From an uncultured Victivallales bacterium (GTDB lineage Bacteria; Verrucomicrobiota; Kiritimatiellia; UBA8416; CAYOBW01), in assembly GCA_964555035.1 (NCBI GenBank), contig CAZKRK010000046.1:1-29411 (forward strand): a stretch of DNA of 29,411 bases, given 5' to 3'. Below the pieces are notes generated by a model. It had not been told where the DNA came from and searched no databases. It was given only the letters and a program-made list of their open reading frames with translations. Positions 6,114-28,885 of the stretch are shown one piece after another. Each line of letters opens with the position of its first letter. Position 1 is the first letter of the stretch. The position numbers and the translations under genes are program-made.

Positions 6114-6191
6114 GGGGCCTGCAGGAGGTGGGTGGGGCCAAAACCGATCTGACAGATCGGTCGGATCCGTCGGATCGGCCGGGCCAAATGG

Positions 6192-6228: not shown

Positions 6229-6239
6229 AGATGGTCGGT

Positions 6240-7589: not shown

Positions 7590-7856
7590 TCCTTGTAGGT
7601 TACTGGGGTTCCTGGTCCCTCCCGGACAAGAAATCGGATACTAACGAAAAGGAGCCGAACAAATCAAGCACCGGTTCGCTGAGTCCGCGGCCGCGGGCGC
7701 ATCTCGATCTGCTGCACTTGCCGAGTGGCCCCCACCGGGATAAGCCCGGCGGGGGGGCCTCGGCAAATGCAACAAATCGGCGCCATTGTCAATCCGCCCC
7801 GTTTGTGCCATTTTTCGAGCATTGTGAAGACCTCCACCGAGAACATTGCGGCCGGG

Positions 7857-10800
7857 ATGAGGCAGAACCGGCTCTTTCTCGACCTCGAAACAACCCGGAG
7901 CGGACGCATTCGCAAAGTCGGCGCCGTATTCGGCGATCGTGTTGTGTCGTCGGCACACGACGGGGGCGTGCAACGGGCGCTGTCCATTCTGGACCGAATA
8001 GCCGGCCAGGCCGAGTGCCTCGCGGGACACAACATCGTCGATCACGACCTGCCTGCTCTTCGCCATTGCCGTGCGGACTTGAAACTCCTGCAGGTTCCCG
8101 TGATCGATACGCTCTACCTCTCGCCGATCTGCTTTCCCGAAAATCCCTATCATTGCCTGGTCAAGGACTACAAGTTGGTCTCGGAAACCGTCAGCGATCC
8201 TGTCGAAGACGCCCGCCTGGCCGCAACGCTGTTCGAGGACGAAATCGCGTCTCTGATCGGTATCCGAGAAAGCAGTCCCGAGCTTTTCAAAGCGTTGCAC
8301 CTGCTGACCACAAAGACATCGCCGTCGGATCCCGGATCTCATGCGACCGGAATGAGGCATCTGTTCCGGAGCCTCGGGGCCGACGCGGTCACCGATGACG
8401 CGCTCGAGTGTGTCCGCGGGATGGCGGCGCAGTACGGCTGTCGAACGGCAGCCGTACGCTTGGACCACACGAACCTCACGTCCGCGCAGAAGTGCTGGGC
8501 GCTGGCCTTCGTGCTGACCTGGTTGCGCGTGTCCGGCTCGGATTCCGTCATTCCGCCCTGGGTGCGGCACCGCCACCCGTCCGTCAGCGTATTCCTTCAT
8601 GCGCTCCGGGATGTTCCTTGTGACGACGCGGATTGCCGGTATTGTGCCGAAACCCACAGTCCCGAGAAGCAGCTCAAGCGGTTCTTCGGGTTCGACTGCT
8701 TCCGACCCACGCCGCATGATGGGAACGGCGGCAGCCTGCAACGCCGCATCGTGTTGGCGGGGATGCAGGGAGAATCGCTCCTGGCGATCCTGCCGACAGG
8801 CGGCGGCAAGTCACTCTGCTACCAACTGCCCGCACTTGTCCGCAGCGTCCGGCGAGGGCAGTTGACGGTCGTGATCTCCCCCCTGCAGGCGTTGATGAAA
8901 GACCAGGTGGACGGGCTGCAACGCCGCACCGGCCTTGAAAACGCCGCCGCGCTCTACGGCCTTCTGACGCCGCCCGAGCGTGGTGACGTACTCCGACGTC
9001 TCAGGACAGGTGACATAGCGGTTCTGTACGTATCTCCGGAGCAACTCCGCAACGCTTCCTTCACCAGGGCAATCTCGCAGCGGGAGGTCGGTTGCTGGGT
9101 CGTCGACGAGGCGCATTGCCTGTCGAAATGGGGACACGATTTCCGCCCCGACTACCTCTACATCGGCCGCTTCATGCGCGAGCTCGCCAAGCGTCAGGGA
9201 TGCCCCTTGCCTCCCGTTGCCTGTTTCACCGCCACGGCCAAGCGCGATGTCGCCGAAGAGATCATGGCCTACTTTCAACGTGAGACGGCCATGCCCGTTG
9301 CCCTCTACCAGGGCGGCGTCGAACGCGAGAACCTGTGTTTCGAAGTGCAGACAGTCAGCGCGCCGGCCAAGCTGGGGCGAATCGACGAGTTGCTGCACGA
9401 CCGATTGGATGCGAACGGGAACGAAGGAAGCGCGATCGTCTTTCGTACTACGCGCCGGCTCGCCGAAGAAACGGCCGAGTACTTGTGCAACCAGGGGTGG
9501 CAGGCGGCGTTCTTTCACGCCGGCATGACGCCGCCGGAAAAGAAGCGCACGCAGGACGCGTTTCTCGACGGCGAGCTGCGCGTGATCTGCGCGACGAACG
9601 CGTTCGGCATGGGGATCGACAAGGACGACGTCAGGCTTGTCGTGCACGGCGATTCGCCGGCTTCGATCGAAAACTACCTGCAGGAAGCCGGCCGGGCGGG
9701 CCGTGATCGCGGCCGTGCCGACTGCGTGTTGCTCTATGACGAGGAGGACTGCGAGCAGCAGTTCCGTCTCGGCGCCTTTTCAGAACTGAGCCGGCGCGAT
9801 ATCGCCCAGATTCTGCGCGGGCTCCGTAAAGCCACCCGCACGCACGGCTCGGACAGCGTCGTGATCACGACCGGCGAGCTCATGCGCGACGAGGATGTCG
9901 ACACCACATTCGGGCCCGAAGACCTGTCGGCCGACACCAAAGTACGCGCCGCGATGTCCTGGCTCGAACGTGCCGGCTTCGTCGAACGCAACCAGAATCG
10001 CACCAACGTCTTTCAGGCGCGCCTCCTGGTACGCTCCACCGGGGAGGCGGAGGAGAAGCTCGCGCAGCTCGGCCTGTCCGACGCGGAGTCCCGGCTCTGG
10101 CTCGCCATCGTGCGTGAAATGATCAATGCCGGGGAAACCGACAGCCTGACCGTAGACGGGTTGGCTCTGCTGCCTGAATTCCAAGGCTATCTGAAGACCG
10201 GGGCGGAGTTCATACCGCACCATGTCGTGCGCGAGGGACGCAGCCAGGAGTATCTGAGTTCAAAGGTCCTCAAGGTCCTTAACTCCATGACGAACGTCGG
10301 GATCATGAAGAAGGATACGCTGCTCACCGCGTTCATTGCCTACAAGGTGGCCAACCACTCGCGCGTGCGTTTCGATCGGGTCTGCGCGAGCGATCGCGAA
10401 ATGCTGAAGGTGTTGATGGAAGAAGAGCCCGATCCGGAAGGCTGGCTGCCGCTCAATCTCCGTCTGCTGAACCAGACATTGCTGGATCGCGATGTTTCCG
10501 CGTCACCCCCTTTCCTGCGCAGGTTGTTGCGCAGCTTGAGCGAGGACGGCAAAGGGTTCTCGGGACAAAGGGGCAGCATCGAGTTGCGCCACGTCGGCCG
10601 CGATGCCTATCGGGTTCGGCTGCGGCGCGAGTGGGCACAGATCGCGGAGCTTGCCGAACGCAGGCGTCGCGTGGCCGGTGTGCTGCTCGACGCGATTGTC
10701 TCCAAAGTGCCGTCCGCCACTCCGCCTCGAGCGGACCTCCTCGTGGAGTTCTCTTTCGAAGAACTGACCGCCGCGCTCAACCGGGATCTCGCTCTGCGCT

Positions 10801-13073
10801 CGGACGTCCGCGACATGCAGGCCGCCATCGAACGGGGACTCATGTTCCTGCACGAGCAGAATGTCATTGTCTTGCAGCAAGGACTGGCGGTGTTCCGCTC
10901 GGCCATGACCGTTCGTGTGCTGCCTGAATCGAAAGGGCTGCGCTACACGCAGGACCAGTACCAGGCGCTCGAGCACCACTACCGCGAACGTGTGTTCCAG
11001 GTGCACGTCATGAACGAATACGCCCGGTACGGGATCGAGAAGATCCAGGAGGCGTTGGCTCTGGTTGTGGCATACTTCACAATGGAGAGGGAAGCCTTCA
11101 TTGCCCGCTTCTTCGGATCACGCCGCGAGCTCTTGGAACGTGCAACGACGGCACGCTCATACCGTCGGATTGTCGATGCCCTGGGCAACCGCGAACAGAT
11201 CCGCATCGTGACGGCGCCGCTCAACAAGAACATGCTCATCCTGGCGGGACCCGGATCGGGAAAGACGCGCACCGTCGTCCACCGGTGCGCCTACCTGTTG
11301 CGCGTGAAACGCGTGCGCCCCTCTTCCGTTCTCGTCTGTTGCTTCAACCACAAGGCAGCGCTCGAATTGCGCAGACGCCTCGCGGAGCTTGTCGGCCGCG
11401 ACGCCTGCGGCGTCACGGTTCAGACATACCACGGATTGGCCCTGCGACTGCTGGGGTTCTCGTGCAGCGCGATGAAACCGGACGCTCGCGATTCGCTCGA
11501 CTTCGACAGGTTGATCGTGGACGCCGTGGACCTTCTTGAAGGCGGAAAGGCCGCGGCTGGCCTCGAATCCGACGAAACGCGTGACCGGCTCTTGGCGGGA
11601 TACGAACACATCCTCGTCGACGAGTATCAGGACATCGACGAGGCGCAGTACCATATGATCGGCGCAATCGCCGGGCGGACCCTTGAAGATGGCGATCGCA
11701 AGCTCACCATCCTTGCCGTCGGAGACGATGACCAGTCCATCTACGGTTTCCGCGGCGCGAACGTCACGTTCATTCGCCGTTTCTGCGAAGACTTCGAGGC
11801 CGCCACACACCACCTCGTCGAGAACTACCGGTCTACCCGCTACATCATCGAAGCGGCGAACAGCGTCATTGCCCGCAACCGTGATCGAATGAAGTGCGAC
11901 TTGCCTATTCGCGTTGACGAAGGCCGCCAGCTTTCCCACCCCGGGGGGGCGATTGCCTCACTGCATCCGGAGACAAACGGACGCGTTGCCGTCGTCTCCG
12001 TGCGGGATGACGCCGCACAGGCTGTCGCCGCCGGGACCGAGATTGAGCGGCTTCGGACCCTTGGCGCGAAAGACTGGTCTCGAACGGCAATCCTCTCGCG
12101 AACGCGCCGCGATTTGTCGCTCGTACGCGTCGCGTTGGAGGCGAAATCGATTCCGGTCCAATGGCCTCTGCAGCGCAACAAGCTGCCCTCGATCTACCGA
12201 ATGCGCGAGGTCCATCGTGCTCTCGGCACACTCCGCGAGATGCGAAGCAGCAACAGAACGGCATCGGAGCTCTTCGAGCGCGTCGTCATGCCACCCGGTT
12301 CTTGCGGCAACGCGTGGGCGGGCATGATCGAATCCCTCTTGAGCGCATGGCAGGACGAAACCGGCAACGCCAGCCTTCCCGTTGGTGCTTGCGTCGATTT
12401 CCTCTACGAGTCGCTCGCACAGCGCCGGAGAGACGAACAGTTTGGCGTCGGCGTCGTCCTGAACACGGTCCACGCGGCCAAGGGAACGGAGTACGACCAC
12501 GTTATTCTTTGCGGCGATTGGTCCAATGGGAGCAATGCCGCGGACATCGAAGAAGAACGCCGCGTCTTCTACGTCGGCATGACACGTGCGCGGCATTCGC
12601 TGTGCATTCTCGATCGCGCCGATACGCGCAACCCGTTCCGTGGAGAGCTGGTTGGCCCTTGTTTCGCCCCGCGACATGAGATGGGCCCCGCGAACGGCAA
12701 TCTCGCCTATCGCGACTACACGCTGCTTGGTCTCGATGACATGTTCCTGGACTTTGCGGGCCGGCAGCCGGCCCGCCACCGCGTTCACGAGGCTCTGTCC
12801 GAGCTGAAGCCCGGAGCATCTCTGCAGGCACAAGCGCAGGATGGCCGCGTCTGGCTGGTCCATGGGGCAGGGACAACGATCGGCGCTTTGTCCGCACAGG
12901 CGACAGAACTCTGGCGCGATCGCCTCGACGACATCGACTCGATCCGCGTGGTCGGAATGTACACGCGCCTGCGCGAGGACATCGGCGACAGGAACTTCCT
13001 TGCCCGCATCCGCTGCGACTCGTGGGAAGTCCCGGTCTGCGAGGTCCGCTCCATGCCGGCCGGGCAGGACTGA
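7857..13073 (+). CDS. Giant triple-fusion protein: DEDD 3'-5' exonuclease, RecQ-type SF2 helicase core and UvrD/PcrA-type SF1 helicase
   Basis: Residue numbers follow the 7725 ORF. Exonuclease motifs are LFLDLETT (aa 50-57) and GHNIVDHDL (aa 101-109). RecQ motifs are LPTGGGKSLCYQLPA, VVDEAHCLSKWGHDFRPDY, ATNAFGMGIDKDDVRLVVH and YLQEAGRAGRD (aa ~320-675). UvrD motifs are LILAGPGSGKTRT, ILVDEYQDID, VGDDDQSIYGFRGA, VENYRST, TVHAAKGTEYDHV and FYVGMTRAR (aa ~1160-1630). I chose the Met at 7857 as the start because the DxE motif then lies 6 residues in. The ORF is open from 7725. Confidence 0.85.
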   Translation: MRQNRLFLDLETTRSGRIRKVGAVFGDRVVSSAHDGGVQRALSILDRIAGQAECLAGHNIVDHDLPALRHCRADLKLLQVPVIDTLYLSPICFPENPYHCLVKDYKLVSETVSDPVEDARLAATLFEDEIASLIGIRESSPELFKALHLLTTKTSPSDPGSHATGMRHLFRSLGADAVTDDALECVRGMAAQYGCRTAAVRLDHTNLTSAQKCWALAFVLTWLRVSGSDSVIPPWVRHRHPSVSVFLHALRDVPCDDADCRYCAETHSPEKQLKRFFGFDCFRPTPHDGNGGSLQRRIVLAGMQGESLLAILPTGGGKSLCYQLPALVRSVRRGQLTVVISPLQALMKDQVDGLQRRTGLENAAALYGLLTPPERGDVLRRLRTGDIAVLYVSPEQLRNASFTRAISQREVGCWVVDEAHCLSKWGHDFRPDYLYIGRFMRELAKRQGCPLPPVACFTATAKRDVAEEIMAYFQRETAMPVALYQGGVERENLCFEVQTVSAPAKLGRIDELLHDRLDANGNEGSAIVFRTTRRLAEETAEYLCNQGWQAAFFHAGMTPPEKKRTQDAFLDGELRVICATNAFGMGIDKDDVRLVVHGDSPASIENYLQEAGRAGRDRGRADCVLLYDEEDCEQQFRLGAFSELSRRDIAQILRGLRKATRTHGSDSVVITTGELMRDEDVDTTFGPEDLSADTKVRAAMSWLERAGFVERNQNRTNVFQARLLVRSTGEAEEKLAQLGLSDAESRLWLAIVREMINAGETDSLTVDGLALLPEFQGYLKTGAEFIPHHVVREGRSQEYLSSKVLKVLNSMTNVGIMKKDTLLTAFIAYKVANHSRVRFDRVCASDREMLKVLMEEEPDPEGWLPLNLRLLNQTLLDRDVSASPPFLRRLLRSLSEDGKGFSGQRGSIELRHVGRDAYRVRLRREWAQIAELAERRRRVAGVLLDAIVSKVPSATPPRADLLVEFSFEELTAALNRDLALRSDVRDMQAAIERGLMFLHEQNVIVLQQGLAVFRSAMTVRVLPESKGLRYTQDQYQALEHHYRERVFQVHVMNEYARYGIEKIQEALALVVAYFTMEREAFIARFFGSRRELLERATTARSYRRIVDALGNREQIRIVTAPLNKNMLILAGPGSGKTRTVVHRCAYLLRVKRVRPSSVLVCCFNHKAALELRRRLAELVGRDACGVTVQTYHGLALRLLGFSCSAMKPDARDSLDFDRLIVDAVDLLEGGKAAAGLESDETRDRLLAGYEHILVDEYQDIDEAQYHMIGAIAGRTLEDGDRKLTILAVGDDDQSIYGFRGANVTFIRRFCEDFEAATHHLVENYRSTRYIIEAANSVIARNRDRMKCDLPIRVDEGRQLSHPGGAIASLHPETNGRVAVVSVRDDAAQAVAAGTEIERLRTLGAKDWSRTAILSRTRRDLSLVRVALEAKSIPVQWPLQRNKLPSIYRMREVHRALGTLREMRSSNRTASELFERVVMPPGSCGNAWAGMIESLLSAWQDETGNASLPVGACVDFLYESLAQRRRDEQFGVGVVLNTVHAAKGTEYDHVILCGDWSNGSNAADIEEERRVFYVGMTRARHSLCILDRADTRNPFRGELVGPCFAPRHEMGPANGNLAYRDYTLLGLDDMFLDFAGRQPARHRVHEALSELKPGASLQAQAQDGRVWLVHGAGTTIGALSAQATELWRDRLDDIDSIRVVGMYTRLREDIGDRNFLARIRCDSWEVPVCEVRSMPAGQD

Positions 13074-13139
13074 GTTCGTCGATCGCTCCGCCTATGCCGC
13101 CCCTCCGGGGCTTGTTTCCATGCTCGACGCATGTGCGGC

Positions 13140-13251
13140 AAACGTAGGTCCGATTTGCAATCGGACCCAACTCCGGTCGGGTCTGGTCAGCCGTGGCGTT
13201 ATCTGAGGCAACCAGCGGGGTTGGGTCCGATTGCAAATCGGACCTACGTTT
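13140..13251. repeat. Double-hairpin palindromic element (32-nt perfect inverted arms, 48-nt spacer), same family as 1856-1985
   Basis: 13140-13171 (aaacgtaggtccgatttgcaatcggacccaac) is the exact reverse complement of 13220-13251. The internal hairpin GGTCCGATT-TGC-AATCGGACC resembles GGCCGGATT-TGT-AATCCGGCC. It sits between convergent helicase genes. Confidence 0.85.
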
Positions 13252-13350
13252 ACCGCTCACGCACGTTCCGGCCCTCGGGGAGTCACGAAGCATCCGCTTC
13301 TTCCGCACGAAGGTGTCACAGTTGTTTCCGAGAGGTAAGGTAGTCTGGGC

Positions 13351-16122
13351 CTACGGTCGCGCCAACTCCGCCTCGACGCGCGCGACGAGGTCCAGTCCCT
13401 CTTGGAGAGCACCATCGCCGTCGCTTCCGCCGCCGTCGAAGGCGGCCAGGGCAGAGACGAGGGCTGCGGGTTCTGTCGGGAGCTCGGAACCGTCGCCGTC
13501 GGGCTTTGTTCCGGGACCGTGGTGCAGGACGACGACCGCTTCGCGCCCCGCTCCCAGAACCGTCGCAAGGTGCGGGAGTGCCTGCTCCGCAAGACCCACA
13601 CCCGCCAACGCCTCGACGGCCTTGCGCTCGGCTGCGGTCGTTGCCCAGACCTTGCGTGCCGCGGCACGGTGGAGCTTCGGCTTGGGCCGTTCCCGCGGGG
13701 GCAATGGCGTGTAGCCGTCGGCGGCATGTACCGTATCGATGTCGGCGGACAGCGTGAGGATGCCCATTTCCTGAAGCCGCAGCAGCATCGCGTGCATCTC
13801 CGGCGTAATGACCTCGGCCGTGGCGCCTGCCGCCTCGGCCGTATCGCGAAGCGCATCGAGGTCCGTTCCGGGGCGCGACACGACTACCGTCCCGCCGGTT
13901 TTGGCGTTGCGTTCGATGCCGAGGATGATGTCCGCGTGGCGCGCCGTGAGTTCTTCCTTCAGTGTCCTGGGTTTCTCTTCGCGAGCCGGTGGGGCAGGCG
14001 CCACGGGCTCCCCGCCCAGCAATTCGCCGACGCGCGCCGCAAAGGCCTGGCGACCGGTTTTGCCGCTCGGCCGTTCCTCGAACGCGGCCCCGTCCAGCAC
14101 GGAGTCGGCCAGCGCGGTCTTGTACGCCAACTTGTCGAGCATGGCGCTTTCGATCGAGCGTTCCGCGACCAGGTTGACGACGCGCACGCTTCGCTTCTGG
14201 TGCTTGCGCCAGGCCCGCGCGATGCGCTGCTCCAGCTTCGCCGGATTCCAGGGCAGGTCGAGGTTGATCACGATGTTCGCGGCCTGCAGGTTCAGACCCG
14301 CGCCGCCTGACTCGGACGAGAGAAACACGCGGCAGTCGGCATTCTGCTTGAACATGCGGATCTGCTCGCGCCGTTTCTGCTGGGGGATTCTGCCGGTGTG
14401 TTCCGCGAACCCGATTCCTTTTGCGGTCAGCAGTTCCTTTACGAGGTCGAGCATGCGCACCCACTCCGAGAATATGATGACCTTCGCCTCCGGGTCGTCA
14501 CCCAGCAGGTCGTCGAGGATGTTCTCCAGCTCCTCCAGCTTCGGACAGTCACGGCACTCGGGGTCAAGGATGTAGGGCGTGTCGCAGATCATGCGCATGC
14601 AACCCAGCAAGAGCAGAAGGCGTTCCTGCTCCTTCTTCGTCAACGGGCGCCGTTTCATGATCGAAACGAGCATGGCCACGTCGTATTCGATCTCGGCATA
14701 GCGCGCCCGCTGCTCTTTTGTCATGGAAACGAAGAAGTTCTTGTCGGTACGTTCCGGCAAGGCGTCTTCGACGTCGCTCTTGCGGCGGCGCAACATCACC
14801 GACGAGACCGTGCGGTGCAGCTTGTCCAGGTTCCTGGGGCGGACCTCGTTGTCGGAAGTGAGTTCCATAAACGCGCGCTGAAAACGGAAGAGCGACCCGA
14901 ACACGTGTGGGTCGACGAACTCGACCAACGAGTACAACTCCTCGATGCGGTTTTCCAAGGGCGTTCCGGTCAGCACGAATGCGTATGGACTGCGCACCCG
15001 CTTGATCGTTTTGGCGGTCTTCGTGGGCCAGTTCTTGATGCGTTGCGCCTCATCGAGGATGACGAGGTCCGGAACGAGCAGGCGGTTGATATCGTCCACG
15101 TCATTGCGTACCTGCTCGTAGTTGCAGAGGCTGTACGGATGCTCCTCGGCATAGAGGCGCAGGCGGGCGGGCCGCGATCCGAAGACCGGCTTGGCCTGGC
15201 GGCCGGTGAACTGCATGATCTGGTCCTCCCACTCCGCCTTGAGCGAAGCGGGGCTGACCACCAGCACGCGGCGCACGCGGCCGGACTGGCGCAGCAGCTC
15301 GGCGGCGGCAATCGCCTGCACCGTCTTGCCGAGCCCCATCTCGTCGGCCAGCAGGGCGCGACCGGTGAAAGCCAGATGTGCCATGCCCGCTTTCTGATAG
15401 GGGTACAAGGGAAGGACAACGGGGTTGTCGGTGCGTTTGGCGGCTGCCACGTCGCGATCGAAATGCCGCCGCAGCTCGTCAAGGTCCGTCCTGAACCTCT
15501 CTCGCTCGAGCCAGTAGTCGACGTGTTCGGACAGACGCACGCCCTTCCGCGCCGATGCGGTGAGCATGGCCGTGGCGCGTTCCGCGGCCGTGCACGCGTC
15601 CGTATTGCCGGCCAGGGCGAAGCCTTCATCGCCGAACAGCGACCCCACGCGCCTCTCGACCGCGGCGATGCCCGCTGCCGGCCGCAACAGGCGCAACCGC
15701 GGATTGGGTCCGCGAACGTCCATGAAAATCTCGTAGGCAGGCGATCCCGCCTTTGCCGCGCGGGCAAAGGCGCGCTTCTTGCGGTGCTGGATGAACTGCC
15801 GCACACGCTCGATGTGCTTGCAGCACCCGAGGCGGTTCATGCGGTAGTCCTGACACGAACAACTGTTCAGGTTCTCCGACAGACTCCGAATCTCGACGCG
15901 GTAGGGTTGCTCCCACTGCGTGGACGAGACCTCGAAGAGACCGTGGAAATCGTCACGCATCGCCACGCGGGTGACCTGCGCCTTTTCCTTCTCGGCACTC
16001 TCGCGCCGCAGCACGATGCTCTGCTCATCCGTCGGAAAGCCAACCCGTTTCGGTGGCCGTTTCTGGACCTGTTTGGCCTTCTTGCTTCTGCGTTTCTTCC
16101 GCGTCTTCCGTTCCAAGCTCAT
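13351..16122 (-). CDS. SNF2-family helicase/translocase with N-terminal SWIM zinc finger and an uncharacterised C-terminal extension of about 230 aa
   Basis: The SWIM motif CSCQDYRMNRLGCCKH is at aa 88-103. SNF2 motifs are LLADEMGLGKTVQAIA, the DEAQ box (VILDEAQRIKN) and LTGTPLENR. The helicase-C region includes SSESGGAGLNLQAANIVINLDLPWNPAKLEQRIARAWR. The N-terminus is highly basic (KTRKKRRSKKAKQVQKRPPKR). Confidence 0.9.
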   Translation of the reverse strand: MSLERKTRKKRRSKKAKQVQKRPPKRVGFPTDEQSIVLRRESAEKEKAQVTRVAMRDDFHGLFEVSSTQWEQPYRVEIRSLSENLNSCSCQDYRMNRLGCCKHIERVRQFIQHRKKRAFARAAKAGSPAYEIFMDVRGPNPRLRLLRPAAGIAAVERRVGSLFGDEGFALAGNTDACTAAERATAMLTASARKGVRLSEHVDYWLERERFRTDLDELRRHFDRDVAAAKRTDNPVVLPLYPYQKAGMAHLAFTGRALLADEMGLGKTVQAIAAAELLRQSGRVRRVLVVSPASLKAEWEDQIMQFTGRQAKPVFGSRPARLRLYAEEHPYSLCNYEQVRNDVDDINRLLVPDLVILDEAQRIKNWPTKTAKTIKRVRSPYAFVLTGTPLENRIEELYSLVEFVDPHVFGSLFRFQRAFMELTSDNEVRPRNLDKLHRTVSSVMLRRRKSDVEDALPERTDKNFFVSMTKEQRARYAEIEYDVAMLVSIMKRRPLTKKEQERLLLLLGCMRMICDTPYILDPECRDCPKLEELENILDDLLGDDPEAKVIIFSEWVRMLDLVKELLTAKGIGFAEHTGRIPQQKRREQIRMFKQNADCRVFLSSESGGAGLNLQAANIVINLDLPWNPAKLEQRIARAWRKHQKRSVRVVNLVAERSIESAMLDKLAYKTALADSVLDGAAFEERPSGKTGRQAFAARVGELLGGEPVAPAPPAREEKPRTLKEELTARHADIILGIERNAKTGGTVVVSRPGTDLDALRDTAEAAGATAEVITPEMHAMLLRLQEMGILTLSADIDTVHAADGYTPLPPRERPKPKLHRAAARKVWATTAAERKAVEALAGVGLAEQALPHLATVLGAGREAVVVLHHGPGTKPDGDGSELPTEPAALVSALAAFDGGGSDGDGALQEGLDLVARVEAELARP

Positions 16123-16269
16123 GTGCGCCTCAATACGTTGTCCGTGAATAAGCGATGTCCGGCAAGACTAGCCATGGAGAGGGGCGGGGTGCAAGAACTC
16201 TCGCAACCCTAACGACAGAAACGTGACCGATGACGTGGGGTAGCCATAGAAGCAAGCTCGCCGGCGCTC

Positions 16270-16297
16270 AGGCTCACACCTTGTAAAGTGTGAGCCT
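16270..16297. promoter_or_regulatory. Palindrome AGGCTCACAC-N8-GTGTGAGCCT overlapping the regulator stop codon, upstream of the SNF2 gene (operator or terminator candidate)
   Basis: It has a perfect 10-bp stem and the loop CTTGTAAA. The same stem sequence recurs at 16897-16930. Confidence 0.45.
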
Positions 16298-16907
16298 ACC
16301 CCTCCATGCAAGCGATTCGTACCAACTCATGCGCAAGAGGCGATAACTTCCGCGCCAGGGCGTATGTCCCGCGTTGGTTCCGGACGACAATGTCACGGCG
16401 CACCAGTTTGCTCACATGACGCTTCATCGCCGGCAGAGAAATGCCGCATCGAACAACCAGTGCCACAATCGACAACCCCGGCGAGCGATTCAGTTCCCGC
16501 ACGATCCGGATGCGTCTAGGATGTGTGAAAGCTGTAAGGTTCCGAAACGCCCCCTCGATGGCGCCTAGGCGCCTGGAAAGCTGTCGTTTCATCGCGGTGA
16601 CAAGGGCCTCGGAAAACGAGATCGTGCTGTTTGGAGACACAGTGTACACGACCCAACGACTCGTCCGCCGCGCATCCAGGATGCCTCTGGCGTTGAGAGC
16701 CCGAAGACATTGGCTCGCACTGGATTCCGATATGCCTACCTGCGCGGCGACATCGGAGACGCACTGCCGTTGATGTCGAAGCAGAAACCGCAACACAGCG
16801 AGCCGTCTCCGGTTCGCCAATGCCCGGCATGTGCGCCAAAGCGTAGGACTGAGTGAACGCGCGTTCTCCATACCATCTCCAAGTAGACACCTCAACGCCA
16901 GGCTCAC
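16296..16907 (-). CDS. Transcriptional regulator with two tandem ArsR/SmtB-type winged-helix domains
   Basis: Domain 1 reads RTCRALANRRRLAVLRFLL...QCVSDVAAQVGISESSASQCLRALNARGIL. Domain 2 reads FTHPRRIRIVRELNRSPGLSIVALVVRCGISLPAMKRHVSKLVRRDIVV. The first 12 codons overlap the upstream palindrome, so the Met at 16871 (MENARSL) may be the real start. Confidence 0.75.
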   Translation of the reverse strand: MSLALRCLLGDGMENARSLSPTLWRTCRALANRRRLAVLRFLLRHQRQCVSDVAAQVGISESSASQCLRALNARGILDARRTSRWVVYTVSPNSTISFSEALVTAMKRQLSRRLGAIEGAFRNLTAFTHPRRIRIVRELNRSPGLSIVALVVRCGISLPAMKRHVSKLVRRDIVVRNQRGTYALARKLSPLAHELVRIACMEG

Positions 16908-16930
16908 ACGTTATAAGGTGTGAGCCTGGC
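16897..16930. promoter_or_regulatory. 34-bp palindrome GCCAGGCTCACAC-GTTATAAG-GTGTGAGCCTGGC at the 5' end of the regulator gene (operator candidate)
   Basis: It has a perfect 13-bp stem and a TTATAA-centred core. It shares the GGCTCACAC/GTGTGAGCC arms with 16270-16297. Confidence 0.45.
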
Positions 16931-17062
16931 GTCAATCAGAAACTCGTGGCATCGGCATCCAAGCCAGGTTCCTTGACTGCGGCGACTACTACGACGTTGG
17001 TCTTGACAAGTACTGCCCACTGAGCGCTGGGATGGCAGAAGTCCTTACCTCGTGGAACTATC

Positions 17063-17170
17063 GGTGACACCATTGATTGATGATTCCCGATTGATGATTT
17101 GTGATTTTCGAAGTACTTCACAAATCATCAATCATAAATCGCTAGTCATCAATCAGACGAAGGTGTCACC
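17063..17170. repeat. 108-bp AT-rich imperfect palindrome (MITE/REP-like) built from ATTGATGATT-type units
   Basis: The termini GGTGACACC (17063-17071) and GGTGTCACC (17162-17170) are complementary. The inner 14-bp perfect stem is TTGATGATTTGTGA (17091-17104) paired with TCACAAATCATCAA (17118-17131), with the 13-nt loop ttttcgaagtact. The region between is degenerate but alignable. Confidence 0.8.
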
Positions 17171-17334
17171 TTCATTTTCCGCGGTGCAGTCATCCCGGTC
17201 AGAGCGTAGATTCAACGTAGCCGCCCAGAGGACAAGTGTTTGCGACGAAGCCACGGTTCTGTGTGCGGCCGGGCGGGGTAAGGTTCTCTGGATGGAGTAG
17301 AAGGAAGTCCTCGTCTGTTTCCCAAAGTGCACTC

Positions 17335-17462
17335 ACGTTTGCTCTCAACGCCGGTGTCGCCCACAACCCAAGTGTGGCATAGGTAGAAAAACGGGAAGGT
17401 AAGAAGATGGGAGAATTGACGGCATCATCTTTCTACCATCCCATCTTTCTGCCTATCATCTC
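17335..17462. repeat. Copy A of a ~125-bp dispersed element (CAACCCAAGTGTGGCA head and GGCAGAAARATGGG-type inverted units)
   Basis: It aligns by eye along its length with 28337-28463, in the same orientation, with many identical positions. The internal arms ggtagaaaaacgggaaggtaaga and tctttctaccatcccatctttctgcc are imperfectly complementary. Confidence 0.75.
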
Positions 17463-17575
17463 CTACACAGGGCTTGGCCAGATTTCTAGTTCTTCTTGCG
17501 CCCCTCGCCCGGCTAAGCCACTACGCCTCGGCCGGGACTTCTCCCGGCAGAGGGGGGCCGCATTCGTGGGCAGTC

Positions 17576-17636
17576 CATTGATGATTGTCGATCGCCGATT
17601 GCCGATTTCTGAAGTTCGAAAACCAGCAATCAGACC
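17576..17636. repeat. Degenerate partial copy of the AT-rich ATTGATGATT element
   Basis: cattgatgattgtcgatcgccgattgccgatttctgaagttcgaaaaccagcaatcagacc shares the cattgat..gatt..cgatt..gattt..tcgaa..aatcagac order with 17071-17158. Confidence 0.45.
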
Positions 17637-17705
17637 GGACTGCGCGTCGTCGTCACTGCAGACTGAACAGTCTTTTGCCTATTCGCCCGCTGTAGGCGGC
17701 CTAGC

Positions 17706-17732
17706 GGCGGAGGACCGCCGTCTCCAGTGGCG
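17706..17732 (+). repeat. 27-nt motif GGCGGAGGACCGCCGTCTCCAGTGGCG, copy 1
   Basis: A reverse-complement copy lies at 20827-20849 and a direct copy with one mismatch at 20940-20966. It contains the GGCGG-AGGA-CCGCC mini-hairpin. Confidence 0.7.
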
Positions 17733-17892
17733 TCTCCGCAGGGCGCGTAGTCGCTTTCTGTGTGTAATAGGCAGGACAAGCCCGGCGGGGCTACTCTGAA
17801 AGTGCAGCAAATTGCAGATGCGCCCAGCGGCAGCGTACGCTCATAACACTCTTGCCCCCGCCGCGCCTCTCGTGCATGCTTACCGGGAGCGC

Positions 17893-20826: not shown

Positions 20827-20849
20827 ACTGGAGACGGCGGTCCTCCGCC
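20827..20849 (-). repeat. 27-nt motif family, copy 2 (inverted), 15 nt after the lipoprotein stop codon
   Basis: actggagacggcggtcctccgcc is the exact reverse complement of the first 23 nt of copy 1. Confidence 0.7.
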
Positions 20850-20939
20850 GTTACGGAGCAAGGTGTTGAGCACAAACGGAAACAGAAGTGAACGAAGTTC
20901 CCGCATGTTCCACCAAGTGCGCACTCACTTGCGCGCAAC

Positions 20940-20966
20940 GGCGGAGAACCGCCGTCTCCAGTGGCG
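20940..20966 (+). repeat. 27-nt motif family, copy 3, 20 nt upstream of the next ATG
   Basis: ggcggagaaccgccgtctccagtggcg differs from copy 1 at one position. Confidence 0.7.
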
Positions 20967-22901: not shown

Positions 22902-22995
22902 TCAGCCAAAAACAGTCCGTTGCTGCATTTTTGGCTGATAATAGTTGCTTTATAATCAGCCACAATGCATGTTAATGCATGTATTTTGGCTGATT
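22902..22995 (+). promoter_or_regulatory. AT-rich promoter/operator-like region with four TCAGCCA(A/C)AA half-sites, a TATAAT hexamer and an ATGCATGT direct repeat
   Basis: IR1 pairs tcagccaaaaa (22902-22912) with tttttggctga (22928-22938). IR2 pairs aatcagccacaa (22954-22965) with ttttggctgatt (22984-22995). TATAAT is at 22951-22956, ATGCATGT occurs twice (22965-22982), and the SD-like AAGGTG lies 5-6 nt before the ATG at 23009. Confidence 0.5.
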
Positions 22996-23008
22996 AAAAA
23001 GGTGTGAC

Positions 23009-24448
23009 ATGGACACGATAATCGGGCGAGAAGCGGAAAAACGAGTGCTGAGGGCGGCACTCGAATCGGGTGAGGCCGAGTTCATCGCCGTATACGGACG
23101 CCGGCGAGTGGGCAAGACTTACCTTGTCAGTCGGTTCTTCGACCGGGCCGCTTTCTACTTCGAGTTAACCGGCACGCGTGACGGGCCGCTGCACGAGCAA
23201 CTGGCGAACTTTGCGGACGTTCTTGGACGCAAGGCCGGTCTGGATTTGGCTGTGCCGAAAAGCTGGGCCGAGGCGTTTCGGCAGCTCGTTCGCGTGTTGG
23301 AGGCCCGGCCGGCCGCGGGGAAACGCGACCGAACCGTTCTCTTTTTCGATGAAACTCCCTGGCTGGCCTCACGACGCTCGCGCTTCTTGTCGGCGCTGAG
23401 CTATTTCTGGAACTCCTGGGCCGGTCGGCGCCCCGACATCGTCTTGATCGTCTGCGGTTCGTCGGCGTCCTGGATGCTGGAAAAGGTAGTGGCCGACAGA
23501 GGAGGCCTGCACAACCGTCTTACGCGACGAATTCGTCTGATGCCTTTCACATTGCAAGAGACGGAGGCCTTCTTGCGATCGCGTGGCGTGCGGCTCGACC
23601 GACGACAGATTATCGACGTCTTCATGGTGGCCGGCGGCATTCCTCAATACCTGAAGCAAGTCGAGCCGGGACGGTCGTCGGCGCAGAGCATCGATGCGAT
23701 GTGCTTCCAGCCGGATGGCTTCCTGTACGACGAGTTCGATCGCCTGTACGCTTCCCTGTTCCATGATTCGGCCAAGCACATTGCCGTTGTCCGTGCGTTG
23801 GCGAAAACGCGTTCAGGGTTGTCGCGAACGGCACTGTTGAAACGGGCCGGTCTCGCATCGGGCGGAACGTCGACACGGGTTCTGACCGCGCTCGAAGAGT
23901 CGGGCTTCATTGCCCGGCACGTACCCTTCGGCCAGAGAGTCAACAACGCGCGATACCGGCTGATCGACGAGTACAGTCTCTTCTACCTTACCTGGATGGA
24001 GGGGAAGCGGCACGACTTGCTGAGCGAGTCGTGGTCGACGCAGTCGCAGTCCCGGCGGTGGTCAGCCTGGGCGGGGTTCAGTTTCGAGGGAGTGTGTTGG
24101 AAGCATGTCGACCGGATTACAGCCGAGTTGGGCATAGCCGGAGTACAGACCAGAGCGTCGACGTGGCAGCACAGAGGCGGTCCGGGAGAACAAGGTGCGC
24201 AGATCGATTTGCTCATAGACCGTGCGGACCGATGTATCTCGATCTGCGAAATCAAACACGGTGAAGGTGTTTTTGCCATTGACCGGAAGTACGCGGCCGA
24301 ACTGAGACGCAAGCTGGACGTGTTTCGCCTGCAATCGGGCACCCGCAAGACCCTGTTTCTGGTGATGGTCACGCCGAGCGGTTGCAAGCACAACGACTAT
24401 TTCACGCAGTTGGTGACTGACGAAGTGCGTCTGGAGTGCTTGTTCTGA
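23009..24448 (+). CDS. AAA-type ATPase (Arch_ATPase/ATPase_2-like) with a C-terminal DUF234/PD-(D/E)xK-like module
   Basis: GREAEKRVL...FIAVYGRRRVGKTYLV is the Walker A region and VLFFDETPW is the Walker B. The C-terminal QIDLLIDRADRCISICEIKHGE fits a D...E-x-K nuclease-fold motif. Confidence 0.85.
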   Translation: MDTIIGREAEKRVLRAALESGEAEFIAVYGRRRVGKTYLVSRFFDRAAFYFELTGTRDGPLHEQLANFADVLGRKAGLDLAVPKSWAEAFRQLVRVLEARPAAGKRDRTVLFFDETPWLASRRSRFLSALSYFWNSWAGRRPDIVLIVCGSSASWMLEKVVADRGGLHNRLTRRIRLMPFTLQETEAFLRSRGVRLDRRQIIDVFMVAGGIPQYLKQVEPGRSSAQSIDAMCFQPDGFLYDEFDRLYASLFHDSAKHIAVVRALAKTRSGLSRTALLKRAGLASGGTSTRVLTALEESGFIARHVPFGQRVNNARYRLIDEYSLFYLTWMEGKRHDLLSESWSTQSQSRRWSAWAGFSFEGVCWKHVDRITAELGIAGVQTRASTWQHRGGPGEQGAQIDLLIDRADRCISICEIKHGEGVFAIDRKYAAELRRKLDVFRLQSGTRKTLFLVMVTPSGCKHNDYFTQLVTDEVRLECLF

Positions 24449-25860: not shown

Positions 25861-26897
25861 GATACCCTCACATGCCATTTGAGCCGGTCAGGCTTGGTGA
25901 CCGTCACACCTACATCCAGAAACTGCTTCAACACTTCGACATTCGTGGCCGAATGCCTCGTCAGGGGCAGCGTCGTGAACTCGCCCTCTCCGGCCACCGC
26001 CATGGGCACCAGGAGCTGGTCCGCAAGGTAACGCCCAACTGGTACGTCTGACGTCAGGTACTCGCGTACCGGCTTCACAACCGAACGCGCGACCCGCTCG
26101 GACGGGACTCCCCTTTCGCCAAAACCGGTGAAGACTCCGCTAACGTGTTCGCTTTCGAGGATGACCATGACGACGTTGCCCGGTCCGCGCGGCGCCGTGA
26201 CCTGCTCAATGCGCGTGGCACCGTCCACGATCGGCAGCAGCCTCCCCAGGGTCGCAAGCTCCTTCTCCGCGATAGACCGTGGGAGCTGCGAGACTATCGC
26301 CACGGCCTCGTGCCGTACAAGCTCGCCGCGTTCGAGAAGCTCGATGGGCGCAAGCCCGCCGGCCGGAGCAATATCCACCGTGAAACACCCGCCGCCCGCC
26401 GGGTAAAAGCCGGGACGGTCGAGAGTGGCTGTCACCGTCGGCCCCATCCGGTTGACGATGGGCAGAAACGAGCGCGTCAGGAAGTCAAAAGGCGGCGCGT
26501 ACGGATTGTGAGTGCCGCCCTCCAGCGTCAGGCGCGACGGGCCGTCGGCCAACAGCAATGCCGGCAGCACCGTCTGCAGAACCAGCGTGGCGCTGCCCGC
26601 CGTGCCGACGGCAAAACGGTATTCGCCTGCCTTCGCGCGCTTCGGCCTGAACGTCAGTCCGCGCGACTTCATCTCGTTGCCGTCTACGGACGCGGAACTC
26701 ACCGCGGCCGCGGCATTCACGGCCGTGAGATGCTGCCGCAGCAACCCCGGCTTGCGCCGTCCCGCACGGATATTCGTGATCCGAAACGGCTGCCCCGTAA
26801 CGAGGGAAAGTGCCAGGGAAGTCCGCAGCACCTGTCCTCCGCCCTCACCAAATGAACCATCAATCGTAATCATTGTGATTCTCTCTCCCATGCTCAT
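25857..26897 (-). CDS. rtcA: RNA 3'-terminal phosphate cyclase RtcA
   Basis: ITIDGSFGEGGGQVLRTSLALSLVTGQPFRITNIRAGRRKPGLLRQHLTAV matches the RtcA N-terminal signature, including the catalytic-His region. The candidate starts are 26897, 26891 and 26873. The upstream ORF extension to 27158 is Arg/Gly-rich and not RtcA-like. Confidence 0.88.
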   Translation of the reverse strand: MSMGERITMITIDGSFGEGGGQVLRTSLALSLVTGQPFRITNIRAGRRKPGLLRQHLTAVNAAAAVSSASVDGNEMKSRGLTFRPKRAKAGEYRFAVGTAGSATLVLQTVLPALLLADGPSRLTLEGGTHNPYAPPFDFLTRSFLPIVNRMGPTVTATLDRPGFYPAGGGCFTVDIAPAGGLAPIELLERGELVRHEAVAIVSQLPRSIAEKELATLGRLLPIVDGATRIEQVTAPRGPGNVVMVILESEHVSGVFTGFGERGVPSERVARSVVKPVREYLTSDVPVGRYLADQLLVPMAVAGEGEFTTLPLTRHSATNVEVLKQFLDVGVTVTKPDRLKWHVRVS

Positions 26898-27204
26898 GCA
26901 CGGATCCGCCTTCGCCGAGCTACGGCGGGACACGACGGGTTTCCGCGCTACCGTCCGTCGCCCACGACCTCCCTCCCCCGTCGACAAGCCGAAACAGGTT
27001 CGGGACAAGACCCGCAAGCCCCGCGCTTCGTAGAGCGTCCGCAGGTGCGTCTTGGAAAGACGCACCGGAGGGCGCAGGCCGGGCAAACCCCACCTCTCGT
27101 CTCCGGCCCGCGCGACGCGCGGGCCTCCGGCGAGTCTACGAAGACACGCCCCCGCCACCGGGGGCCGGGGTACGCCCCTGCGTACCTCCGGCTCCCCGGG
27201 CCGA

Positions 27205-28311
27205 TTAGAGCAGGTTTACCACCCGCTCGGCCAGTCCCTTTTCACCCAACACAACGTTGAGCTTCGAGTTCTCGGCCACCTTTTCCAGAACCTCCAGTTC
27301 CTTCAGCCTCATGAGGGCGGGATTCCCGTCCATCAGTTTGGCCGTATTCACCTGGCTGCGCATCGCAGCCGTCTCTTCACGACGCGCAATCACGTTGGCC
27401 TCGGACGCTTTGCGCGCCTCGATGACCTTGTTGAGCAGCGCCTTCATGTCGCCGGGCAGGATGATGTCCTTGACGCCCAGGGCGACAACGTTCACGCCGA
27501 AGGCTGCGGCCCTCTTCCGCATTGCGGATCCGAGCTCGTCGGTCACGGCGGACTTGTCCGCCAGCAACAGGTCAAGCTCGCGCGTGCCGATGATGCCCCT
27601 GAGGGCAAGCTGCGCCTCACGGTAGAGCGCCTGGTCGACGTCAGCGACAGCCTCGACCGACTTGCGCGCGTCCGTCACGCGGTAGGTCACCACCGCGTTC
27701 AGTCGCAACGAGACCTTGTCGGCCGTCATGATCTCCTGGCCCGACACATCCAGCACCTTCTCGCGCATGTCTACGTGATAGAGCTTGACCTTGCCGACAC
27801 GCTTCCACGACGCGTACTGGCCGGGCGCGAGAGTCTTGACGTATTTCCCGTCACGGAAGTACACGCCCAGGTGACCCTCTTCGACCGTGAACGCGTTCAA
27901 CACGTCCGTAGTCACTGCCGACTTCAGGATCACGTTCAGGTCGGGGTGGTCGATCAGCACGTCACGCGCGTCGACGATGTCCGCCTTCACCTCCTTGAAC
28001 TGCGTCCAGAGCACGTAGCGACCCGAATCGAGGACGCCGTTGAACCTGCCGTCAATCCATACGAGCGCGCGCTCGTAGTCCTTCAGGTCCAACACCAGGG
28101 CGTCGTCGCCCAGGGCAGCGGACTTGACGATCACGTCGAGGTCCGCGTGTGCCAACCAGGGATCACGCTGCGACACGACGTCGACGCGCACCTTGTTGAA
28201 GGGGTCGAAGAACCAGTGACGCCCCGCGTCGAGGATCCCCTTGAACTCCCGATCCTTGAAGACCAGTCCCTTCTCGTACGTTCTAATTTTCACTTTTCCG
28301 ATGACAACCAT
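27205..28311 (-). CDS. SPFH/band-7 (slipin/stomatin-like) protein with a triplicated N-terminal segment
   Basis: The C-terminal two thirds reads VSGQEIMTADKVSLRLNAVVTYRV...QLALRGIIGTRELDLLLADK...FGVNVVALGVKDIILPGDM...EANVIARREE, a typical SPFH core with a coiled coil. A purine-rich SD-like tract (aaggaaggaggggg) lies just upstream of the ATG. Confidence 0.85.
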   Translation of the reverse strand: MVVIGKVKIRTYEKGLVFKDREFKGILDAGRHWFFDPFNKVRVDVVSQRDPWLAHADLDVIVKSAALGDDALVLDLKDYERALVWIDGRFNGVLDSGRYVLWTQFKEVKADIVDARDVLIDHPDLNVILKSAVTTDVLNAFTVEEGHLGVYFRDGKYVKTLAPGQYASWKRVGKVKLYHVDMREKVLDVSGQEIMTADKVSLRLNAVVTYRVTDARKSVEAVADVDQALYREAQLALRGIIGTRELDLLLADKSAVTDELGSAMRKRAAAFGVNVVALGVKDIILPGDMKALLNKVIEARKASEANVIARREETAAMRSQVNTAKLMDGNPALMRLKELEVLEKVAENSKLNVVLGEKGLAERVVNLL

Positions 28312-28336
28312 CTTCCCCCTCCTTCCTTTCTCCTAT

Positions 28337-28463
28337 TCGTTTCCCTAACGTGGGCACGGCCAACAACCCAAGTGTGGCACAGGCAGAAAAATGGGTTGGC
28401 AGAAAGATGGGGATATTGAGGGTGTCGTTCCTCTGCCAGCCCATTTTTCTGCCTTTCATTTCT
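28337..28463. repeat. Copy B of the ~125-bp dispersed element (see 17335-17462)
   Basis: It contains a 22-bp hairpin with one mismatch, GGCAGAAAAATGGGTTGGCAGA (28382-28403) paired with TCTGCCAGCCCATTTTTCTGCC (28432-28453). The head caacaacccaagtgtggcacagg is shared with copy A. Confidence 0.75.
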
Positions 28464-28885
28464 ATCCCGGCAACGCGCTCTCTCGTTCCTACTCTCGTTC
28501 CCCCAGTTCTCAAGAAGACCCTCCAGAGATGAACTCCATGACAATCACACTCAGGCCGCGGAGCGTCGCTTGAGCGCCGCTTGTTCCACCGTCACCGGCG
28601 GGCGGGGGATTGTCCGCCGCGGTTCCGAGGAACCGGGGACAGACCTCCATTCCGCCCGCCGGGCGGTCAAACTTCGCGGCGCGGTATCTGCGCGCTGCAA
28701 GGCGTCCGTCTTGTGCTGCCGGCGAAAGCGTCGCCCGAGCTCCCTGGCGCGTCTCGCGGGGGGACAGCCCCCCGCGCCGTGCTCGCTTGCTCGGTCAACC
28801 TCGATCGCCGGCCGATCCATCATGCGTCCATCTCCTTCGGGCATCGTTGAGGCCCTTGCAGGGCCAACCGGGTTTTCAGCCCAGG

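Follow-up and report, generated by a model that had tools for sequence, protein, structure and literature searches.

Small palindromic repeats and accessory gene blocks have been described in several forms among bacteria. Repetitive extragenic palindromes (REP) of enterobacteria and pseudomonads, found singly or in the inverted pairs of bacterial interspersed mosaic elements (BIME), act as terminators, insulators or mRNA-stabilising stem-loops; miniature inverted-repeat transposable elements (MITEs), e.g., the Correia elements of Neisseria, ERIC, RUP and BOX, are intergenic units that are either bounded by terminal inverted repeats or wholly palindromic; and mobile insertion cassettes, which are transposase-less, carry passenger genes within such repeats. 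To these may be added the defence islands and other variable islands, and the auto-repressors of the ArsR/MarR type with their winged-helix domains. Likenesses to all of these meet in a 29,411-nucleotide (nt) stretch of DNA from an uncultured Victivallales bacterium (contig CAZKRK010000046.1 of assembly GCA_964555035.1, positions 1 to 29,411), here called the window, and above all in the long gene-free spacer between its divergently oriented genes for a winged-helix regulator and a lipoprotein. We read this spacer, with a probability of roughly 60%, as a neutral zone that accumulates small palindromic repeats within an inserted accessory block, of which two large helicases and the regulator are the genes (Table 1).

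The spacer is the longest stretch in the window without a protein or RNA gene, the remaining intergenic gaps measuring 29-331 nt, and it is confirmed as real non-coding DNA. Its longest open reading frame (ORF) extends to 130 aa and an 82-aa ORF is also present; these, and the fact that distant relatives carry other genes upstream of the lipoprotein gene, might be taken as traces of a hidden gene, either one that codes for a small protein or the decayed remains of a gene known from those relatives (PAS sensor kinase, 873-aa protein or membrane-fusion protein). Against this, the spacer ORFs span repeats and have a flat GC content across codon positions, with values at the third position (GC3) of 0.53-0.65, as compared to 0.72-0.85 in 12 of the 13 genes and 0.65 in the regulator; neither these ORFs nor any of the six frames has a Pfam match (E<=1); the gene calls on the JGI and ENA contigs place nothing inside the spacer; and tblastn searches with the products of the genes next to the lipoprotein gene in relatives recover no remnant there. 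The only match of the 130-aa ORF among 1.84 billion representative proteins, P0277, was rejected as a homolog because it is itself an ORF called over a 180-nt tandem repeat and has no DNA similarity to the spacer. Thus, the view of the initial annotation that no convincing ORF lies between the two genes is borne out by GC3, Pfam, gene calls and homology alike, no conserved gene having come to light where one was looked for, and a hidden gene is very improbable. At the P0277 locus itself (L135:4416-5214), the tandem repeat, with 4.4 copies that are 97% identical, has been called as a 262-aa ORF directly upstream of genes for a reverse transcriptase/AEP fusion and Cas1, and is unrelated to the window.

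Nor is the spacer an assembly artefact. A chimeric join, or a repeat collapsed or expanded at the 108-nt AT-rich palindrome in its left half, might be suspected from three other contig sets, which end at 17037, 17155 or 17174, i.e., on either side of that palindrome; however, three independent assemblies, namely the window, ENA scaffold_3035 and JGI Ga0105000_1041683, cross the palindrome with 100% identical sequence, which makes such an artefact hardly credible. As metagenome contigs of this organism tend to stop at other palindromes too (13176/13192 and 27054-27124), the breaks reflect hairpins in general. There is no strain variation within the spacer, its identity being 100% over all sampled contigs. 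Elsewhere in the window, an apparent strain indel at 27047-27110 was rejected as a polymorphism, being a scaffold gap of Ns in contig L108.

The wider setting of the spacer emerges from the closest relative that was found, a contig (L119) recovered by a search with the lipoprotein and sharing 75% identity with the window in the lipoprotein, 85% in the oxidoreductase and 87% in RtcB. In it, the oxidoreductase and lipoprotein genes are divergent neighbours only 207 nt apart, and both helicases, the regulator and the spacer are all missing. The DNA homology to the window ends at 7669 and resumes at ~17851, just upstream of the lipoprotein start. The extra DNA of the window is framed by a pair of imperfect terminal inverted repeats, whose alignment scores 57 as against 18.8 +/- 2.6 (maximum 32) for shuffled sequences; the left one is the best match to the right end anywhere in the window, and no third copy was seen in ~100 kb of related DNA. 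The homology breakpoints (<=7669-7682 and >=17851) fall within ~13 nt of the outer ends of these repeats (7683 and 17838). Because L119 lacks everything from ~7670 to ~17850, the spacer is linked to the helicase block and internal to it. Judging from this comparison, the true boundary is the 58-nt inverted repeat, and the spacer is the inner right end of the block. The initial annotation had placed the start of an island at 7.6 kb, which agrees well with the left repeat and with the end of homology at 7669, and had suggested the spacer as a possible island boundary. That proposal holds in so far as the spacer stands at the right side of a segment absent from L119, but it needs correction in that the edge is the inverted repeat and the spacer is internal to it. 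The segment of 7.6-17.9 kb, whose presence or absence among relatives it had suggested examining, is indeed absent from L119, and the spacer is not retained there without the helicase block, both being gone.

As only a single relative spans the site, the direction of change can only be inferred; insertion is nonetheless favoured over loss, because recombination between inverted repeats inverts the intervening DNA and does not delete it. The composition of the block hints at a foreign origin, with GC3 values of 0.65 in the regulator and 0.77 in the helicase as against 0.81-0.85 in the flanking genes. Beyond the right inverted repeat, the last nucleotides before the lipoprotein gene align to the sequence directly upstream of the orthologous gene in L119 with a weak score (23 vs 16.4 +/- 2.4), and may thus represent the ancestral upstream region. 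In relatives at 60-62% identity, a PAS sensor kinase gene stands ~100-130 nt upstream of the lipoprotein gene instead. Relatives (L120 and L124) show the order MacB, then membrane-fusion protein, 873-aa protein and PAS sensor kinase, and then the lipoprotein gene. Within 4104-7580 of the window, the oxidoreductase gene, which is also the neighbour of the lipoprotein gene in L119, replaces those three genes, and the MacB-OEP pair of the window is therefore without an adjacent fusion-protein gene.

The interior of the spacer is occupied by several families of hairpin-forming repeats. The 108-nt AT-rich palindrome has arms that are 80% complementary, a folding energy of -50.2 kcal/mol (z = -7.8) and a local GC content of 0.32-0.42. 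The decamer ATTGATGATT, allowing at most one mismatch, occurs 8 times where 0.72 are expected, with 6 of the occurrences in the palindrome. A decayed and shortened copy further to the right aligns to it with a local score of 38 (15.6 +/- 2.2 for shuffles), and its own folding is not significant. Between the two lies copy A of a 116-nt element, 77% identical to a copy B near the right end of the window, 48 nt upstream of the Band_7 start codon. The two have in common an invariant 17-nt box and a small hairpin, fold with z values of -3.8 and -5.0, respectively, and differ on both sides of 4 of the 30 stem pairs with pairing retained. The initial annotation had listed the AT-rich palindrome, its decayed copy (as 17576-17636), a ~125-bp element at 17335-17462 and a 27-nt motif at 17706-17732. 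All four prove real and go far beyond chance expectation: the first with the bounds it was given, the second and fourth with slightly wider ones, and the third as an element with a second copy elsewhere, for which the best bounds are narrower than those proposed. Three more repeats were found beyond these, namely the regulator palindrome, a degraded copy of a 135-nt element and the 58-nt inverted repeat.

AACGGCGGAGGACCGCCGTCTCCAG is the core of the 27-nt motif, and the stem-loop CGGCGG-AGGA-CCGCCG lies within its conserved 25-26 nt. Apart from its solo copy in the spacer, it recurs at 20827-20855(-) and 20934-20966(+) and twice in another contig of this genome (L104), i.e., 5 motifs at 3 intergenic sites in ~38 kb of the genome, solo or as inverted pairs and always between genes. 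The pair at 20827-20966 forms the ends of the 135-nt element, a near-perfect hairpin with terminal inverted repeats of ~26-28 nt; a second copy, 79% identical, is found in L104 (5152-5282). The two almost fill gaps between co-directional genes, lipoprotein-Wzy in the one case and DAO-URO-D in the other. The degraded copy in the spacer scores 38 in local alignment to 20886-20944 and 40 to L104:5140-5295 (shuffles, 15.8 +/- 2.2), and it is a matter of speculation that the solo motif 345 nt further on is its displaced end. Thus, the 135-nt family has two full loci and one partial, the 116-nt family two, and the AT-rich family one together with its local decayed copy. A scan of viral contigs located the 27-nt motif three times, always in sense orientation (4931, 5503 and 6655), in a tailed-phage contig (L137, IMGVR_UViG_3300031227_000566) that codes for a terminase, a portal, a head protease and a major head protein. 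The sites follow the protease gene, precede the major head gene and lie downstream of the latter past a small ORF. Over the eight copies from host and phage, 21 columns are invariant; the motif in the phage may be a mark of its host or a shared RNA signal.

The leftmost part of the spacer belongs to the regulator. On the minus strand, a promoter-like order is seen, with TTGACG (-35-like, 16930-16935), 14 nt, and TATAAC (-10-like, 16910-16915), the latter in the loop of a palindrome, CAGGCTCACAC-N7-GTGTGAGCCTG, that is centred on it. Related regulators in contigs L127, L128 and L136 (identities of 81%, 60% and 53%) stand in unrelated gene contexts. All four loci nevertheless display TTGAC(A/G), 14-16 nt and a TCACAC-N8-GTGTGA palindrome or a close variant, along with a -10-like TATAAN in three of them, and in each a second copy of the palindrome follows the regulator stop codon. 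The two palindromes that bracket the gene are at 3887-3914 and 4514-4540 in L127, at 9972 and 10597 in L128, and at 3689 and upstream of 3001 in L136. The outer arms vary between the loci, yet remain complementary. The arrangement is a classic one for winged-helix regulators that repress their own genes; the palindrome over the -10 is thus most likely the operator for auto-repression, to which, by this conserved layout, the regulator would bind. Such ~190-aa double winged-helix regulators form a family that is widespread in the Planctomycetes-Verrucomicrobia-Chlamydiae (PVC) bacteria. A palindrome of the same type is also present upstream of a sulfatase gene in a relative (L120:5626 and 5676), which hints at a possible regulon.

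Table 1. Features of the spacer, the block and their surroundings (window coordinates)
Feature	Position	Strand	Remarks
Gene-free divergent spacer	16872-17892 (1021 nt)		between regulator (-) and 972-aa lipoprotein (+); from gene calls, GC3, Pfam, homology
Regulator promoter/operator palindrome (putative), CAGGCTCACAC-N7-GTGTGAGCCTG	16895-16932	-	95% self-complementary
Second regulator palindrome	16269-16297	-	overlaps regulator stop codon; 90-93% identical to 16899-16928
AT-rich palindrome, 108 nt	17063-17170		ATTGATGATT repeats; outer arms GGTGACACC/GGTGTCACC; from folding, decamer count, GC
Degraded 135-nt element copy	17295-17354	+	interior and right part; abuts 116-nt element
Hairpin element copy A	17347-17462 (116 nt)	+	small conserved hairpin at invariant box CAACCCAAGTGTGGCA, then 74-nt hairpin
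Decayed, shortened AT-rich copy	17570-17643		own outer arms GCAGTCC/GGACTGC
Solo REP-like 27-nt motif	17702-17732	+	AGCGGCGGAGGACCGCCGTCTCCAGTGGCG; 6-bp GC stem, AGGA loop, conserved tail
Right terminal inverted repeat, 58 nt	17781-17838	+	48/59 positions = reverse complement of 7683-7739
Left terminal inverted repeat, 57 nt	7683-7739	-	pairs with 17781-17838; 81% identical
Probable ancestral lipoprotein upstream region, outside block	17851-17892	+	aligns to L119:890-929, directly upstream of orthologous ATG
Block (fused RecQ/UvrD helicase, SNF2 helicase, regulator, spacer)	7683-17838 (10,156 bp)		absent from L119
BIME/MITE-like element, 135 nt	20827-20966		two inverted 27-nt motifs; fills lipoprotein-Wzy gap; reference copy
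Hairpin element copy B	28347-28462	+	leader between tRNA-Pro and Band_7-rtcA-rtcB operon (genes on -)
OEP and MacB genes	left of oxidoreductase gene	-	
GFO/IDH/MocA oxidoreductase	6240-7580	-	
Fused DEAD/RecQ-like and UvrD-like helicase	7767-13073	+	
SNF2 helicase	13351-16122	-	
Regulator, 191 aa	16296-16871	-	two winged-helix domains; start ATG 16871 per public-contig gene calls
Lipoprotein, 972 aa	17893-20811	+	start ATG 17893 per public-contig gene calls
Genes right of lipoprotein, in order	Wzy-like protein; ATPase_2; RtcB, RtcA, Band_7; tRNA-Pro	RtcB, RtcA, Band_7 and tRNA-Pro: -	

Most likely, a block with inverted-repeat ends was inserted between the oxidoreductase and lipoprotein genes by a transposition-like process, with mobilisation in trans, as it encodes no transposase. 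The spacer comprises three layers: on the left, the regulator's own promoter with the TCACAC-N8-GTGTGA palindrome, the probable operator, over its -10; in the middle, ~800 nt of small palindromic repeats from several families, in copies that are decaying and perhaps nested in one another; and on the right, the 58-nt terminal inverted repeat, followed by what would be the ancestral promoter region of the lipoprotein. Lying between the regulator promoter and the terminus of the block, this inner end would be non-essential, and the small repeats of the genome may have been collected, duplicated and eroded there. The hairpins, if transcribed, would act in any of the three capacities mentioned above for REP elements. 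The initial annotation had similarly offered the spacer as a landing pad for small mobile elements, and this is plausible to the extent that three of the families recur at other intergenic sites and that the degraded copy at 17295-17354 abuts another element; however, the individual mobility that it implies was not matched by target-site duplications, individual empty sites or a fitting transposase. Its impression of an unusual repeat density was overstated: an all-against-all comparison of the intergenic regions finds a palindrome in nearly every one of them, and hence it is the length of the spacer alone (1021 vs 29-331 nt) that is exceptional. Such palindromes are seen at 1855-1985, 2686-2774, 6192-6228, 7718-7766, 13129-13262, 22948-23001 and 27035-27125.

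A number of observations weigh against the view of the spacer as a neutral repeat-collecting zone of an inserted block. As regards the block, no transposase or integrase is encoded in it, the only domains found being those of the helicases and the winged helices, so that any mobility would have to be in trans; the relative that spans the insertion site is one contig of 6 kb, at ~75% protein identity; and the hexamers at its flanks, CGCTGA (7677-7682) and CGCTCA (17838-17843), match in 5 of 6 positions, a weak resemblance that could be due to chance. As regards the small repeats, no direct repeats were found in the flanks of 17063-17170, 17347-17462, 28347-28462 and 20827-20966 that would mark target-site duplications, and neither empty sites for individual repeats nor a matching transposase were encountered. 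The 116-nt element has two copies only and the AT-rich palindrome is without any copy outside the spacer in the DNA compared, so that to call either mobile is an assumption. The copy counts cover the ~38 kb mentioned above, and the scans of genomes and metagenomes gave only chance or unrelated matches. Moreover, selection for a function could account both for the four stem pairs of the 116-nt element that changed on both sides and for the scarce variation of the 27-nt motif between host and phage.

The last point bears on the least unlikely of the alternatives, itself still unlikely, that all or some of the spacer works as RNA, as the initial annotation had allowed in naming it a possible source of ncRNAs. 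In that case, the 116-nt element, and possibly the 27-nt stem-loop, would serve as cis-regulatory or small RNAs, and the lipoprotein-Wzy operon would have the spacer as its long, structured 5' leader, with copy B playing the same role in the leader of Band_7-rtcA-rtcB. The good folding of both 116-nt copies, their common box and hairpin, the compensated stem pairs, the position of copy B between tRNA-Pro and that operon, and the sense orientation of the 27-nt motif at every site, including the three in a phage head-gene module, are all in line with such a role. However, with only two copies, the covariation of the 116-nt element is indistinguishable from maintenance of a palindrome at the DNA level, and the two copies are oriented differently towards the gene next downstream, copy B being antisense to its operon and copy A sense to the lipoprotein gene. 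Further, in Rfam searches at the gathering score and at E<=10, tRNA-Pro alone passes in the window, the spacer returning only sub-threshold matches to generic hairpins; a sigma-70 scan of the spacer gave no sites under the scan rule, a sigma-54 promoter does not fit within the repeat elements, and a single weak terminator-like site is present. A wider functional reading, rather improbable in our estimate, would regard the stem-loops as functional and not as junk, and would make the invariant 27/28-nt motif an RNA signal, recognised by its sequence, that is used or imitated by the phage; the motif might then mark where RNA is processed or stabilised, offer a regulator a GGA loop to bind, or represent a solitary unit resembling a clustered regularly interspaced short palindromic repeat (CRISPR). 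Together with this or separately, the block would be a new accessory or defence cassette of Kiritimatiellia-like bacteria, mobilised in trans, with the AT-rich palindrome as its cis-acting site.

This last role for the AT-rich palindrome may also be considered by itself. It could be an origin of replication or transfer, a recombination or resolution site, or a binding array for a nucleoid protein or regulator, recognised as a cruciform or through the ATTGATGATT iterations. Its low GC content against 0.63 for the genome, the decamer repeated five times in both orientations, the very stable cruciform and its position within an accessory block, adjoining two large helicases and a DNA-binding regulator, would all suit such a site. 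On the other hand, genes for a replication initiator, relaxase or recombinase are missing from the block; plasmid and phage records gave no blastn match to the spacer as a whole, nor did a viral-contig scan give one to the AT-rich core; the repeats are spaced by 7 and 14 nt, out of helical phase; helicase homologs in other genomes have no such neighbour; and the TCACAC-N8-GTGTGA type of palindrome linked to the regulator is absent from it. A cis-acting site of the helicase block is, therefore, a distinctly improbable explanation, and a comparably slim chance may be allowed for explanations other than all those considered here. The neutral, repeat-collecting inner end of an inserted block thus continues to be the reading we prefer.

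At least 98 stretches of a genome collection match the 16-mer CAACCCAAGTGTGGCA, which is the chance level for 596 Gb, and as blastn matches never extended beyond 20-25 nt, these were rejected; a viral-contig scan with the box of the 116-nt element returned no match, and a metagenome scan with a 22-base pattern returned one unrelated low-GC contig. In a Phycisphaerae metagenome-assembled genome (L072:4680-4800), a 25-nt unit, CCAACCCAAGTGTGGCACRGGTCTG, is repeated in ~5 tandem copies after a gene and has 20 nt exactly as in the box of the 116-nt element, a likeness that may be due to chance, as the matches of the 16-mer scan were at chance level. A further intergenic repeat of 59 nt, 91.5% identical between its copies, is shared by 26890-26948 (rtcA-Band_7) and L104:6646-6704 (URO-D-rtcR).

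The host is an uncultured marine bacterium that has been assembled repeatedly: sequence identical to the window, whose overall GC content is 62.6%, is found in JGI contig Ga0171656_1001207 (49 kb) and ENA SUTE22-1 scaffold_3035 (29.4 kb), among others, and those protein homologs that carry names belong to Kiritimatiellia, Lentisphaerae and Verrucomicrobiota, so that a Kiritimatiellia-like host within the PVC group is likely. The lipoprotein is without a match in a Pfam scan, and the precomputed matches on its homologs list DUF6250. Two further gene-poor stretches exist in the window, i.e., 1582-2782, which contains a sulfatase gene fragment, and that from 28312 to the window end, which contains a tRNA gene. 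The sulfatase fragment (2090-2669, minus strand), situated in the 1.2 kb that separate the sulfatase gene from the OEP gene, retains N-terminal and middle parts that are 27-37% identical to the sulfatase of a relative and is probably a pseudogene. At the opposite end, in the rtc locus (28311-29411 and beyond), the gene for RtcR, a sigma-54 activator, lies divergently past the right end of the window. The only decent candidate for a sigma-54 site is TGGCACACCCGCTGCG at 29117-29102(-), with three mismatches to the consensus, upstream of tRNA-Pro(TGG) at 28884-28959(-). The presence of a tRNA gene and a long hairpin, that of copy B, between the likely promoter and an RNA-repair operon is unusual. 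The ATPase_2 gene (23009-24448), which matches the candidate defence family PDC-S27 at 4e-181, is another gene that L119 lacks, only 28 nt separating Wzy and RtcB there; no inverted repeats surround it, and AT-rich TTTTGGCTGAT palindromes are present just upstream of it at 22948-23001.

The main value of these results is in annotation, since they account for the long interval without genes in this uncultured, probably Kiritimatiellia-like marine bacterium of the PVC group. Five small repeat families are newly defined with coordinates, the ends of a 10-kb accessory helicase block are fixed to ~13 nt, palindromes are recognised as break points of the metagenome assemblies of this organism, and the conserved promoter-palindrome layout can be reused for double winged-helix regulators, which form a widespread family. 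The 27-nt motif, being common to the host and a phage contig, could serve as a marker for host assignment. For the specialist, surprise would arise only if the hairpins turned out to be functional RNAs or the block to be mobile.

Set against the known systems named at the outset, the block is reminiscent of the transposase-less cassettes, with passenger genes within imperfect terminal inverted repeats, an empty orthologous site in a relative and possibly a short flanking direct repeat; it differs from them in its far larger size of 10.2 kb and in the length and divergence of its repeats, and its mobility would follow from one comparison. A parallel with defence or variable islands might also be struck: the block helicases score against the DpdF, GajB, ZorD and DpdE models, a homolog of the fused helicase in L131 lies in a clear defence-gene cluster with GmrSD, AbiEii and HipA genes, and the neighbouring PDC-S27 ATPase is likewise missing from L119. 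However, no complete known system is present here, and the fused helicase belongs to a very large family, widespread in Kiritimatiellia and Verrucomicrobiota and annotated there as 'RecQ family', that occurs in varied neighbourhoods and may have another role; its homologs are not consistently next to a SNF2 helicase or this regulator, and the edge repeat is absent beside them in other genomes. The regulator resembles the ArsR/MarR-type auto-repressors in its winged-helix domains and in the palindrome over a -10-like hexamer in four loci, and departs from them in joining two such domains in one chain and in having a second palindrome directly after the stop codon in each locus.

Among the small repeats, the 135-nt element with its terminal repeats and the palindromic 108- and 116-nt elements share with MITEs a length of 100-150 nt, an intergenic position, terminal inverted repeats of ~26 nt or an entirely palindromic form, placement where co-transcription is probable, and the presence of a degraded copy that abuts another; they are set apart by two of the families having two copies each only and by the lack, in what was searched, of a target-site duplication, an empty site or a parent insertion sequence with matching ends. 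The 27-nt motif resembles a class 1 CRISPR repeat only in its 28-nt layout (a 6-bp stem with a 4-nt loop, preceded by a short 5' part and followed by an 8-nt tail), and no Rfam CRISPR repeat family matches it at E<=10. In position, pairing and invariance, its best match appears to be REP/BIME: like these, it is short, rich in GC and imperfectly palindromic, with a conserved tail, strictly extragenic and present in near-identical copies, which occur singly or as inverted pairs with a conserved linker (135 nt) in gaps between co-directional genes, and the GTAAC or GCAAC 5' of its stem recalls the conserved REP tetranucleotide. The differences are an unrelated sequence, copies counted over ~38 kb only, a further occurrence in a phage genome and the absence from the window of a gene for a REP-associated tyrosine transposase (RAYT, IS200/IS605-like). 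Thus, the sequences described here are unmatched in Rfam, in plasmid and phage records and in the full-text literature, where searches for the motifs and for Kiritimatiellota REP elements found no papers, but by analogy the kinds of feature are all familiar ones: repeats like those of REP/BIME and MITEs, a winged-helix repressor that would control its own gene, and a block of accessory genes at a site that varies.

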